Below are positions 35,194 through 54,167 of a stretch of 64,000 nt of DNA, in pieces. The DNA comes from Longimicrobiales bacterium (GTDB taxonomy: Bacteria; Gemmatimonadota; Gemmatimonadetes; Longimicrobiales; Gaopeijiaceae), in the NCBI GenBank assembly GCA_965116905.1, contig OZ220732.1:3456001-3520000 (forward strand), read 5' to 3'. Made by a program: the position numbers and the translations under genes. The notes under the pieces are model-generated. The model had not been told where the DNA came from and did no database searches. It was given only the letters and a program-made list of their open reading frames with translations. How positions within the stretch are numbered: position 1 is the stretch's first letter; the number at the start of each line of letters is the position of its first letter.

Positions 35194-35484
35194 CTAGTTG
35201 CCCCCGTAGAACGACGGGATCTTCAGGAGCAGCCCGTCGCGGAGCCCGTCGCGGTTGCGGGAAGCCGCGTCGCGGAGCGTCCCGGCCAGCGCGTTCGCGC
35301 GCATCCGGCCCTCGCGCCATTCGGCGAGCCGTTCGAGCTGCGCGAGTTCGGCCAGCCGCGCCCGGCTCGCCTCCTGGGCCGCCTGGTGGGCGAACACCTG
35401 GGCCACGGCCGCGTCAATGCGGCCCTGGCTCAGCGCGGCCGCCACTTCGGCCTGCTGGAGGGCTGTATTGGACAGGTTGCCGTT
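35194..35484 (-). pseudogene. 3' half of the split VirB5/TrbJ-like gene
   Basis: Begins NGNLS-NTALQQ...; joins in frame to 53539..54167 across the 14-bp repeat. Confidence 0.85.
35471..35484. repeat. att core, left copy GACAGGTTGCCGTT
   Basis: Identical to 53539..53552. Confidence 0.9.
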
Positions 35485-35657
35485 TTCTGTCGATCGAGGT
35501 TCAGGGACGTTCGCTAGAATCCCAATAAGTGTTGTAAGCAAAGGGATTACAGGACATACAGCCTCCAGCGCGATCCGCTCCCACTCCTTGACATCCCGGT
35601 GATTATTGGGGCATCATTCAGGGGCAACTCTCTCTAGCTCTTACAGGATGCCCCAAC

Positions 35658-36875
35658 ATGCCACTGACAGCCACCGCCATCCGCAAGGCCAAGCCTCGCG
35701 AGAAGCCGCGCAAGCTCTACGACAGCCGCGGCCTCTACCTCGAAATCGCTCCCCGCGGCACGAAGGCTTGGCGCTTCAAGTACCGCTTCGCGGGCAAGGA
35801 GAAGCGGATCTCCATGGGGATCTATCCCGAGGTCTCGCTGAAGCTCGCGCGGCGGCGCAGGGACGAGGCCCGCAAGCTGCTGGCGCGGGAAATCGACCCC
35901 AGCGCCTACCGGAAGGCTCGGAAGCAGTCCCGGCGGCAGGGGGCCAGGAACAGTTTCGAGGCCGTGGCAACCGAATGGCTGACCAAGCACTCGCCCAACT
36001 GGTCCACGGGCTGGGTTCGGCGGCTTGAGCGCGAGCTGGAGCGGGAGGCCTTCCCCTACATCGGCGCGAGTCCGGTCGCGGAAATCACCGCACCGGACCT
36101 GCTGGCGGTGGTCCGCCGCGTCGAGGCGCGCGGTCATCTGAGGAAGGCGCACACCGTCTTCCAGGTCTGCGGCCGCGTACTCCGCTACGCGGTGGCGACG
36201 GGACGCGCGGAGCGGGACGTGTCGGCGGATCTGCGCGGGGCGCTGCCGCCCGTCAAGACGAAGCACTTCGCGGCGATCACCGACCCGAAGGAGGTCGGTC
36301 CGTTGCTCCGGCAGTTGGACACCTACTCCGGAACGCTTCCCGTTCGCTGCGCGCTCCGTCTCGCGCCGCTGGTGTTCGTGCGCCTCGGCGAGTTGGTCGC
36401 GGCGGAGTGGGCCGACATCGACCTTGAGGGGGCCGAGTGGCGCTACACGGTCACGAAGACCGGCAGGCCGCATGTGGTGCCCTTGGCGCGTCAGGCGGTC
36501 GCGATCCTGCGCGAGGTTCATCCAATGACGGGGCATCACCGCTATGTCTTCCCGAACGCGCGTTTTCCGTACCGGGAACTGCCGATGAGCCGTGGCACGC
36601 TCTGGAGCGCGTTCCGGGCGTTGGACATCCCGAAGGAGCGGATGACGATGCACGGGTTCCGGGCGATGGCGCGCACGATTCTGGACGAGGTGCTGGGGTT
36701 CCGGCCCGACTTCATCGAGCACCAGTTGGCCCACGCGGTTAGGGATCCCAACGGACGGGCGTACAACCGGACGGCATTCCTGCCCGAGCGGCGCGTTATG
36801 ATGCAGGCGTGGGCCGACTACCTCGACCGCCTCCGGGCCGGGGAGATCGAGCCCCGGCCTCACAAAGCACCTTAG
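35658..36875 (+). CDS. P4-family tyrosine integrase
   Basis: Arm-binding domain 'KLYDSRGLYLEI...WRFKYRFAGKEKRISMGIYPEVSL', plus 'FVR.GEL', 'HGFRAMART', 'QLAH', 'AYNR'. Confidence 0.95.
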   Translation: MPLTATAIRKAKPREKPRKLYDSRGLYLEIAPRGTKAWRFKYRFAGKEKRISMGIYPEVSLKLARRRRDEARKLLAREIDPSAYRKARKQSRRQGARNSFEAVATEWLTKHSPNWSTGWVRRLERELEREAFPYIGASPVAEITAPDLLAVVRRVEARGHLRKAHTVFQVCGRVLRYAVATGRAERDVSADLRGALPPVKTKHFAAITDPKEVGPLLRQLDTYSGTLPVRCALRLAPLVFVRLGELVAAEWADIDLEGAEWRYTVTKTGRPHVVPLARQAVAILREVHPMTGHHRYVFPNARFPYRELPMSRGTLWSAFRALDIPKERMTMHGFRAMARTILDEVLGFRPDFIEHQLAHAVRDPNGRAYNRTAFLPERRVMMQAWADYLDRLRAGEIEPRPHKAP

Positions 36876-37054
36876 CGTGCCCACAGCCCAACGTCACGGC
36901 GTTGTCCCTACGACGGCGAACGCTAAGCCGATGCCTGGCGTGAAAAAGGGCAGCAGTGCGGGGAAGACGATTGCACCGCCACAGTTGGTGCTCTGCCATC
37001 GCACCGGCCAAGTAAGCGCACTGGGAAGAACACCCGGCCGCATGGGCCCCGCGG

Positions 37055-37615
37055 CTACGGTCGGAGTCGCAGGCCGACGAACGCCGCAGCGGGGCCATGG
37101 AAGTCCAGACGGACGACTGGGCTCAAGGCGGATTCCGTGACGCCGATCTGAATGGGCACCCATCGGTCGCCACTGAGCAACGAACCAACCGCGAATCCCA
37201 GGGCGCCTCCGATCCCGACCCCGGCGAACAGATTCCGCGCAGTGTTTTCGTAGTACACGGCGCCCTGCTTGCACCCGATGAGACCTTGATCGGAGCAACG
37301 CGAAGACGCCGCAAGACCCACCAACCCGCCAAAGGCGCCGCCAAGAGCGCCCGCTATCCAAGGAGTCCTGCTTCGGCGGCTTTTCTCCAACGAGATAATC
37401 TCTGCATAAGCGACGGAGAAGGAGATGTCTTCCCTCGCGCCGTCCAGCGCCAATTCAAATCCGTTCCCGCTTACCGCCGTGATCTCGCCGACCACCATAC
37501 CAGCGGTCGTGGTTGCGCGAACGCGATCGCCGACTTGCTGCCCGAGCAGGGGCTGGGGGGCAGCCACGAGGCCGACCGCCATGACCAGGAAGACTCCAGG
37601 AATCTTGTTAGACAC
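37055..37615 (-). CDS. Secreted/outer-membrane hypothetical protein (paralogue of the next gene)
   Basis: GTG 37615 after GGAGGAG; signal peptide, 'GDRVR', glycine-zipper-like TM segments. Confidence 0.65.
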   Translation of the reverse strand: MSNKIPGVFLVMAVGLVAAPQPLLGQQVGDRVRATTTAGMVVGEITAVSGNGFELALDGAREDISFSVAYAEIISLEKSRRSRTPWIAGALGGAFGGLVGLAASSRCSDQGLIGCKQGAVYYENTARNLFAGVGIGGALGFAVGSLLSGDRWVPIQIGVTESALSPVVRLDFHGPAAAFVGLRLRP

Positions 37616-52812: not shown

Positions 52813-53048
52813 AGCAATAACACGGCAGTCTCTCAGAGCGTCCGCGGCTTCCCACCATTCGGTCTCGGCTTTCCGCCGTTTTCGGCAGACCGAATCAGCT
52901 ACAAGCTAACGGCAGGAATGGCAGATCGTGCAGTCCTGTATGAACTTACCTGATTCCTTGGCGTGACTTGCGCCTCCGGCATTCCGCTGACCGTTCTACA
53001 CACTGTCAGGTGATTCTGTACTACAAAAGGCCATGACACCGGACGCCC

Positions 53049-53276
53049 TCAGCCCGCGTCGCTTCGGCTCGCGGCGATCCGCTCCCGGATCCACTCGTCC
53101 ACCTCGGCCTCGATCCAGCCCACCGCGCGCGCGCCCAGCGAAACGGCCCGGGGGAAGCGTCCCTGATCCAGCCGCACGTAGATCGTGCTCCGCGACAAGC
53201 CCGTGCGGGCCAGCACCTCCGGCAGCCGCAGAAATCGTATTTGGCCCCGCTTTTTTCGTTCGGTCACACTCGTCAT
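53049..53276 (-). CDS. alpA: AlpA-family regulator/recombination directionality factor
   Basis: 'RFLRLPEVLARTGLSRSTIY.....GRFP..V.LG.RAVGW.E.EV..WI'. Confidence 0.92.
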   Translation of the reverse strand: MTSVTERKKRGQIRFLRLPEVLARTGLSRSTIYVRLDQGRFPRAVSLGARAVGWIEAEVDEWIRERIAASRSDAG

Positions 53277-53538
53277 CGGCCTGTCTCCTTCTCTCAATGG
53301 TGAATCCCGTAATCATCCGGGCGTTGGTCCCGTAGTGCTCGGAGTGAACACGAGTACCCGGTTGGCCGTCGCCAGCGTCGGCGAACGGCCTCGCCGCGAG
53401 GGCTCAGGACGCTGAAGGGCAACGAGTCCTGCTGACGTGGGTTGTTGGAGGCGACTGCACGTTTGGGGCAACTCTGGGGGCATCTCGGAGGCCTGCGAGC
53501 CAATGAGCCAATAAACACAACGACTTACGTGCTGCCTT

Positions 53539-54167
53539 GACAGGTTGCCGTTCGCGGTCAGCCCCGCGAACGAGCCCTGCGCGCTCTCGACCGTCTCGGC
53601 CAGCGCGGCCGCGGCGTCGAGCGTTGCGTAGTCGAGCGCGCGCTGGCGGTCGGCGGCCAGTCGGGCGCGGCGGTAGTCGTCGGCCGCGCGCGTCGCCGCC
53701 CCGGGCGGAAGGTCGCGGTACAGCGCGAGGATGTCGCCTTCCGACACCCGGTCGGCGGCGCCCTGGGCGCTTCGCCACAGTCCCGTGAACGAGCGGCCGC
53801 CCCGGCCCATGTCGCGGACGGCATCGACCGTCTCGCGGGCCGCGCCCTGGAAGTCGGAGCCCCAAGAGAGTCCGTCGCGCACGAGCCCGACGGGCTCGGC
53901 GGCGAGCCGTGAGAACGGCTGGAGCAGCGCGTCGATCTCGCCCTTCGCGGCACGCTCCATGTGGTCGAGCTGGTCCTCGAGTTCCGTAAGCTGGCGGGCC
54001 ATCGACCGGATCTGGGTGATCTGGTGCGAGATCTGCGTGATCTGGTTCGCGATGATCGTGGCCCGCTGGATCCAGCTGCCGATGTCGAACTGCGCGCTCG
54101 CGGGCTGGGGGGCCGCGACAAGCAGGAGCGGGAGGAGAAGGGAGGGTCGGAGGATGCGGTAGAGCAT
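53539..54167 (-). pseudogene. 5' half of the split VirB5/TrbJ-like gene
   Basis: Signal peptide ASA-Q, 'IANQITQI..QI.QI' TrbJ-like coiled coil. Ends ANGNLS at the 14-bp repeat (53539..53552). Confidence 0.85.

Follow-up and report, generated by a model that had tools for sequence, protein, structure and literature searches.

Here we describe an 18,068-bp element inserted site specifically into a gene of a type IV secretion system (T4SS) operon, which belongs to an ICE (integrative and conjugative element) of a Longimicrobiales bacterium from the phylum Gemmatimonadota (assembly GCA_965116905.1, contig OZ220732.1). The stretch of DNA analyzed, hereafter the window, comprises 64,000 nucleotides (positions 3,456,001 to 3,520,000 of the contig), and coordinates are those of the window unless a genome position is given. 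The interrupted gene very probably has a VirB5-like function, and the element codes for a P4-type tyrosine integrase at one end and an AlpA-family protein at the other. We propose, as the probable account of these data, a helper-embedded mobilizable element that would integrate at a fixed codon, excise at the time of ICE transfer, thereby restoring the gene, and use its own relaxase to leave through the pore of the ICE.

The element is bounded by a 14-bp direct repeat, GACAGGTTGCCGTT, whose exact copies at 35471-35484 (the attL core) and 53539-53552 (the attR core) cannot be extended to either side; there is no further copy in the window with up to two mismatches (2 matches, compared with a shuffle mean of 0.25 and 3 of 100 shuffles reaching 2). 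The 5′ part of the virB5/trbJ-like gene (codons 1 to 209; minus strand, 53539..54167), delimited by alignment to an intact homologue, has a reading frame that continues into the element up to a stop at 53313, and the 3′ part (minus strand, 35194..35484) lies directly upstream of virB6. The gene sits between virB10 and virB6 of the ICE. Its halves of 629 and 277 nt, 906 nt in all, read ...LTANGNLS and NGNLSNTALQQ... at their ends. Aligned separately to an intact homologue of 301 amino acids (P0002), they match at 204 of 209 positions (residues 1 to 209) and at 86 of 91 (residues 211 to 301). Since these alignments cover the intact protein, with any gap or overlap limited to the shared codons, the halves are colinear and the predicted length of 301 amino acids is exact. 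The left junction is unlikely to be an assembly artifact, because one error-free contig of sequencing run X1, which may be the source sample, bridges it (35411-36588, depth 41.9); for the right junction, no comparable contig was seen among the listed pieces. Both a chance repeat and an assembly artifact are rejected on the strength of the colinear gene halves, the contig over the left junction, and a comparison of 11 attL and 8 attR ends. A preliminary description of this DNA, made from its letters and open reading frames (ORFs), had reported the repeat, the in-frame halves, the placement of int and alpA at opposite ends, and the separation of virB2 to virB10 from virB6, virB8, virD4, and virB11. 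All of these held up, and the rejoined protein aligned over its full length to an intact homologue, as that description had proposed to check.

The att comparison also suggests how the strands are exchanged. In its left part, the attL core tracks the synonymous codons of the host gene, and the attR core varies hardly at all, a pattern expected of a crossing near the right end of the repeat. Going by the known arrangement of tyrosine-recombinase cores, we infer that the site resolves into a 7-bp overlap (35478-35484 at attL and 53546-53552 at attR) between imperfect inverted 9-bp sites sharing GAC-G, predicted at attL to occupy 35469-35477 on the host side and 35485-35493 on the element side. 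When read at the DNA level, six of seven distinct intact sites have the common overlap, and the seventh is the variant found at both ends of the element in genome G068. Predicted arm-type sites lie inside attL (35608..35654; GGGGCATC at 35608, GGGGCAAC at 35621, and an inverted copy at 35647) and inside attR (plus strand, 53465..53484; GGGGCAAC at 53465 and GGGGCATC at 53477). The GGGGCA(T/A)C pairs that had been noticed inside both ends are thus present, together with the additional inverted copy. The 8-mer alone is not rare, occurring at 15 places in the window. The attL motifs are conserved across the clade of this integrase and are also present upstream of several tRNA-adjacent relatives, and the same doubled motif recurs at the attR ends of virB5-site and sister elements. 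The doubled GGGGCA motifs are therefore consistent with inherited arm sites.

Two close relatives of the integrase occupy intergenic sites with a matching or near-matching 14-mer, one of them just after a thrS-like gene, which suggests that the enzyme reads the core sequence rather than gene or tRNA structure. A tRNA-like target was considered and rejected: the best tRNA or tmRNA of the genome matches 10 of the 14 core bases, and none of the six best contains the 7-bp overlap. Hence, the preferred tRNA site resembling the 14-mer, which the preliminary description had weighed as an alternative, was not found. A third exact copy of the 14-mer, at G000:C1:4044490, is unoccupied and has a good left core-type site; it might serve as an off-target site.

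Interruption of this gene at the same codon is a recurrent event. A search with the N-terminal half returned 342 matches, the best 120 of which comprise 92 intact alleles, one that is truncated in another way, and 27 (that of the window included) with the same split codon. From that codon on, the split alleles continue as a homologous att read-through into the end of the element. In the genus, the 53 genomes surveyed hold 38 unsplit copies (at least 69% identity) and 6 split ones verified beside the integrase, a few further partial matches lying outside the latter count. The interrupted share thus amounts to about one in five close homologues (27 of the best 120) or one in seven verified genomic copies of the genus (6 of 44). 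Seven elements, that of the window and a rearranged one among them, could be followed to both ends; they measure about 8.6 to 71 kb and differ in cargo. At least three genus codes of the family include genomes with full attR junctions. In a tree built from 119 N-terminal halves, the 27 split alleles need 25 state changes (mean with shuffled labels, 24.7), of which the starred branches force at least 11. Monophyly of the split alleles is rejected in this quick tree (p-AU 1.8e-9), for 21 of the 27 the nearest allele is intact rather than split, and in two split/intact pairs (P0036/P0038 and P0111/P0114) the whole N-terminal part is identical. A single ancestral insertion inherited vertically is accordingly rejected; the scatter of the split alleles and the identical pairs point to insertion or excision many times and recently, and the tree data do not separate repeated insertion from repeated excision.

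Certain of the recovered loci have a more involved organization. The 71-kb virB5-site element of G068 (L098-L101; G068:C2, about 1257300-1328200) encloses another, complete ICE of this family, whose virB5-like gene is intact. At L095/L096 (G026:C2, 2642400-2670000), the gene halves face each other, an inversion having scrambled the invaded ICE; this inversion probably took place between copies of a second integrase family. At L226 (G202:C13), an ICE has an intact virB5-like gene, but a sister integrase has entered its virD4 gene after about codon 291, and a split virB5-like gene lies 10 kb away.

The integrase itself departs from the usual habit of its family. P4-type integrases are generally found with tRNA targets. 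We scanned 60 of 79 integrase loci for tRNAs and found a tRNA or tmRNA directly upstream of int in 39 of 42 distant relatives (those with at most 70% identity), as opposed to 0 of 18 close ones; two of the three distant exceptions have flanks of less than 300 bp. The distant forms share with the present one the domain architecture, the GGGGCA arm motifs, and the TTGACA promoter-like site, with 45 to 70% identity among the relatives fetched. In a quick, midpoint-rooted tree of 86 rows (SH-aLRT support only; duplicates and fragments below 270 amino acids excluded), the close relatives form a single Gemmatimonadota clade of 26 rows (SH-aLRT 100) nested among tRNA- or tmRNA-adjacent relatives. This nesting, along with the general prevalence of tRNA targets, argues for a change in the direction from tRNA to ICE site and supports the retargeting to a T4SS gene that the preliminary description had put forward. 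Within the clade, 19 of 26 rows are at ICE-type sites. An 11-row subclade (support 99) comprises nine elements at the virB5 site and two at off-target sites; a pair of identical rows, both from one record set, lies inside virD4 after about codon 291, with the same virD4 junction in one further genome; seven rows are at a hairpin beside virD4 (three assigned by BLAST and four by eye); one splits a small gene close to the integrase of the ICE; and five have no site assignment. The clade thus records several recent target changes among integrases that are 78 to 100% identical, and it offers a compact system for studying how the site specificity of tyrosine integrases changes.

The gene content of the element resembles that of an integrative and mobilizable element (IME) in that it has its own integrase and att ends but seems to lack mating-pair genes, the internal ORFs scanned having given no VirB or VirD4 match. 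No oriT was identified. The integrase (405 amino acids in an open frame; plus strand, 35658..36875) starts 173 bp inside the left end, retains the R242-H332-R335-H355/H359-Y369 motifs, and matches Arm-DNA-bind_3, Phage_int_M, and Phage_integrase (PF13356, PF22022, and PF00589) over their cutoffs; against NF007246, it scores an E value of 1e-68, yet falls under the cutoff of that model. A promoter-like site for int (TTGACA-18-CATCAT; plus strand, 35588..35617), a consensus match only, overlaps the first arm site (1 found; shuffle mean, 0.1). At the other end, the AlpA-family protein (minus strand, 53049..53276; PF05930, E value of 1.7e-22) is a predicted recombination directionality factor. Its likely start is the ATG at 53276, preceded by an AAGGAG ribosome-binding site, rather than the TTG at 53297, and lies about 260 nt past the attR core in the orientation of the ICE transfer operon. 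Between these ends are a MobC/NikA relaxosome accessory ORF (minus strand, 46719..47171; PF21983 and PF05713) and a gene for an MbeA/MobA-VirD2-like relaxase, recognized by profile matches as a 5′ part (46348..46756) and a 3′ part (38819..39969), both on the minus strand. In most siblings, mobC and the MbeA-like HUH relaxase are likewise present and point towards int. Of nine relaxase frames tested, six are open for at least 517 amino acids and have the HxH motif, one is 445 amino acids long, and that of the window is split. The element carries no trbJ copy and gives the 3′ gene part only a short in-frame leader that lacks any signal-peptide-like sequence; no replacement 5′ end with a signal peptide is supplied.

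We picture the cycle of the element as follows. The integrase would bind the GGGGCA arm sites and the two inverted 9-bp core sites, with strand exchange across the 7-bp overlap in the Asn-Gly-Asn codons. In the integrated state, no full-length protein would come from the ICE, which is probably transfer-dead as long as the element is in place; this genome has no second copy of the interrupted gene (nor of virB4, virB6, or virB10). ICE induction would plausibly transcribe alpA, since this gene lies on the operon strand and crude scans found no terminator-like or sigma70-like site between it and attR; transcription of the transfer operon would thus cross attR into alpA, and the excision factor would rise during assembly of the pore. 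That alpA is translationally coupled to the truncated gene is not supported: the first stops fall at +42 to +273, and shuffled sequences are equally open (P of 0.10 to 0.80 in seven ends). Precise excision would then restore the gene and rejoin the operon, and the circle could transfer separately via the restored pore and, once in the recipient, reinsert into the ICE. For the copy in this genome, transfer of the circle would additionally require either that a further insert leave the relaxase gene or that a relaxase act in trans. Beyond this, and more tentatively, it is possible that a P4-type clade left tRNA genes and radiated over the transfer machinery of one ICE family (virB5, virD4, the hairpin, and a small gene of the integration module) and so became for conjugation what helper-embedded satellites are for phages. 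Its virB5 subclade might in that case act as a toll gate, at which the ICE transfer transcript, perhaps along with the AlpA paralogue of the ICE, fires alpA, and the pilus is completed only after the passenger has excised.

Several observations weigh against the proposal of a mobilizable element that excises at ICE transfer. No empty-site or circle joint was found at 98% likeness in the contigs of runs X1, X2, X3, and X13; contigs drop rare forms, the RNA run X13 covered short pieces only, and at 90% likeness 15 of 153 joints are listed. The X1 contig also runs unbranched across attL. The reversibility claimed in the preliminary description was not seen in these contigs, and the switch on ICE conjugation that it envisaged is better framed as a mobilizable parasite using the ICE as address and helper. 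An apparently intact ICE-embedded IME of Streptococcus suis was not seen to excise in the experiments that we draw on from PMC7168690. Furthermore, the relaxase gene of the window's own copy is split by an insert, and the mob pair also precedes a different integrase family at three other places in the genome. The mob module may thus be borrowed or the relic of another insert, borrowing from an element of that different family being probable in light of this association. One complete sibling (L224/L225; 14.5 kb) lacks a mob match, no alpA match was obtained at four attR ends (L224, L226, L227, and L229), and no relaxase was identified for the host ICE.

The strongest competing explanation, which we nonetheless think unlikely, is that of a site-specific parasite uncoupled from its host, for which the conserved ICE sequence would be a low-cost landing pad. 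The ICE would be silenced, exit would follow the parasite's own cues or other helpers, and the orientation of alpA would be incidental. The lack of excision joints in the four runs fits such a view, as does the read-through frame towards alpA being no more open than shuffled sequence. In genomes G007, G009, G026, and G068, the gene is additionally present in intact form, a possible supply in trans, and several invaded ICEs are frameshifted or rearranged (L012, L092, and L095/L096). However, the sister integrases took virD4 and the adjacent hairpin, not neutral sites; alpA is co-oriented with the operon in all seven virB5-site attR ends where it was found; and the present genome lacks a second copy of the interrupted gene.

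Alternatively, and less probably still, the interrupted gene might code not for VirB5 but for an accessory secreted helical protein, whose loss would cost the ICE little beyond polarity on virB6 to virB11. The profile scores speak for this and give the virB5/trbJ-like label of the preliminary description weak support. TIGR02780 (TrbJ) gives 21.9 bits for P0002 and 33.9 for a remote homologue (cutoff, 100.55), and the PF07996 score is 20.9 against a cutoff of 24.7, with 4 of 56 members matched at an E value of 0.01 or better. Structural searches gave generic helical bundles only: Foldseek returned no match at an E value of 0.001 or better, and the VIA fold search placed an unrelated helical protein first (Z of 9.7), whereas CagL came at rank 39, within noise (Z of 6.8). 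A sequence search of PDB produced no informative match, and the ESM Atlas neighbors are unnamed. The label rests on position, on the kind of protein, and on sub-threshold profile matches. In the related ICE loci examined, the gene is at the trbJ position, between virB10 and virB6, as expected for a VirB5/TrbJ protein, which precedes VirB6/TrbL in VirB operons. Judged by eye, its product has a signal-peptide-like start, and the structure model is all-helical (pLDDT 73, pTM 0.59). N-terminal matches to TrbJ models recur (E values down to 2e-8), as do matches to VirB5 models, all below curated cutoffs, and the operon yielded no alternative candidate for VirB5. VirB5 is described in PMC12624023 as forming the top of the stalk and the tip of the pilus; if the gene is indeed VirB5, the invaded ICE would be unable to build a pilus. 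Finally, the element might have been domesticated, by its host or by the ICE, as a switch that keeps conjugation off until a signal arrives, through regulated gene integrity as in the skin elements. An anatomy that allows precise restoration and the intact integrase and alpA would permit this, but it is very improbable given the patchy distribution (6 split copies verified in the genus, compared with 38 unsplit ones) with repeated insertion and the selfish-element traits of variable size and cargo, own mob genes, and off-target sites.

The concept of an IME within an ICE gene is already published. In streptococci, IMEs are found in genes of Tn5252-family ICEs (traG/VirD4, maff2, and snf2), and a model of excision, restoration, and hitchhiking has been proposed for them as a hypothesis (PMC5357655, PMC5704250). 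As in the present case, insertion is site specific and into a conserved ICE gene, an essential transfer gene included, and VirD4 is a target both of some of these IMEs and of the sister subclade. They differ in using serine integrases and in residing in Firmicutes, whereas we find a P4-type tyrosine integrase with AlpA in a pilus/stalk gene of a VirB-type system from Gemmatimonadota. IME_oriT, which has an integrase of the tyrosine type (PMC5357655), excises, transfers separately with its own relaxase, and reintegrates in the ICE (PMC7563843). It too is an IME with its own relaxase inside a host ICE, but it targets oriT, uses a MobT/Rep_trans relaxase, and leaves the ICE transfer rate unaffected, in contrast to the cut coding gene and the HUH MbeA-like relaxase described here.

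Helper-embedded phage-inducible chromosomal islands (HE-PICIs) are a phage counterpart with an integrase-AlpA clade, whose AlpA relatives are described as directionality factors (PMC10111431); they are reviewed alongside ICE-embedded IMEs in PMC11389934. The shared traits are a single clade of integrases with AlpA that repeatedly gained new sites in genes of the helper without replacement sequence, a doubled motif on both sides of attP, and off-target chromosomal insertions, and HE-PICIs have been proposed to be driven by helper transcription. Unlike HE-PICIs, which have a prophage helper, transfer in capsids, and adjacent, unidirectional int and alpA, the present element has an ICE as its helper and alpA and int at opposite ends, which would make them divergent across attP. 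No primase or capsid Pfam match was found among the ORFs scanned. Its clade traits thus mean that it works like an HE-PICI, not that it is one, since its host is a VirB ICE and not a prophage late gene and no primase was detected. PIMEs, GIsul2, and the IncP island are likewise IMEs with int and alpA that exploit MPF-T helpers, but they carry their own trbJ/trbL, with several subfamilies at guaA, whereas here a gene of the helper is interrupted (10.64898/2026.01.12.698999; PMC5704250). Our literature search, for the most part a survey of listed hits, found no virB5/trbJ-inserted element, no P4-type clade radiating over ICE transfer sites, and no such case in Gemmatimonadota. These loci make up a large, precisely mapped natural set for a question raised in the IME literature, namely, whether insertion in an essential transfer gene silences the ICE or couples excision of the passenger to transfer. 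The frequency with which these ICEs and their cargo spread may also depend on the element, in bacteria whose relatives are named Ca. Palauibacter and occur in sponge metagenomes.

Turning to the host ICE, Pfam and NCBIfam scans define an upstream block on the minus strand (54186..59574) with an alpA paralogue, virB2, virB3, virB4, virB9, and virB10. After the interrupted gene, the operon continues in the downstream block (minus strand, 25067..35193) with virB6, virB8, a 306-amino-acid ORF, virD4, virB11 (ORF 29248-30717), and ardC and ends in the host integrase, adjoining tRNA-Val. The AlpA of its first gene is 57% identical over 58 amino acids to that of the element, a likeness that would allow cross-talk between the two. 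The 306-amino-acid ORF (32584-33504) is conserved, with 2,390 homologues among 7,999 candidates scored, and is the only relaxase candidate found for this ICE family; it has no Pfam or fold match, a weak lead to DUF5697 (0.87), and a model with a pLDDT of 59. Two database entries fuse this protein to VirB8. The long hairpin (32290-32430; DNA fold z of −3.1) lies between this ORF and virD4, just before the latter; empty in the window, it is the target of the sister integrase subclade and travels with the ORF even in elements without virD4. It is oriT-like in position and shape and hence a candidate oriT or origin. An Rfam scan of the window matched the tRNA alone.

The insert in the relaxase gene forms a third tier of 6,387 bp (39961..46356), bounded by a 9-bp direct repeat and with a joint recorded at 39962-46350 in the contig data. 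This amounts to a three-tier nesting of ICE, virB5-site element, and relaxase-site element. The insert belongs to the integrase family that the mob pair precedes elsewhere in the genome and lies in the opposite orientation, with an unrelated tyrosine integrase (plus strand, 45090-46253) and a PD-(D/E)XK nuclease (minus strand, 41868-43286) that matches the PADLOC candidate defense system PDC-S26 (E value of 3e-35). The cargo of the virB5-site element includes a 1,681-amino-acid protein with immunoglobulin (Ig)-like, leucine-rich repeat (LRR), and M66-like domains (plus strand, 47767..52812; Pfam scan), and Pfam and NCBIfam scans of the submitted ORFs detected no resistance genes. Large proteins with Ig-like, LRR, SdrD-like, and peptidase domains occur at both 1017-17036 and 47767-52812, and similar LRR/M66 genes are cargo in some sibling elements.

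The closest relatives are titled Longimicrobiales or Gemmatimonadota, some of them Ca. Palauibacter. Several runs with a small share of the stretch are sponge metagenomes, which suggests a sponge habitat; one that was examined contained only related sequence, and a metagenome scan gave relatives of at most 65% identity. Of tRNA-Val (25067-25142), the 5′ half is duplicated about 99 kb away at G000:C1:3580180-3580220, over 41 bp that extend through the anticodon loop, and there is a further partial copy near 3565431-3565460. It thus seems that the intact tRNA-Val receives its 5′ end, rather than the usual 3′ end, from the island, which has a tandem inner end. Other ends of the ICE integrase family in this genome are at unrelated sites, one of them in another tRNA half near 2707807, and 17 tRNA genes are clustered within 2 kb at G000:C1:1296478-1298432.

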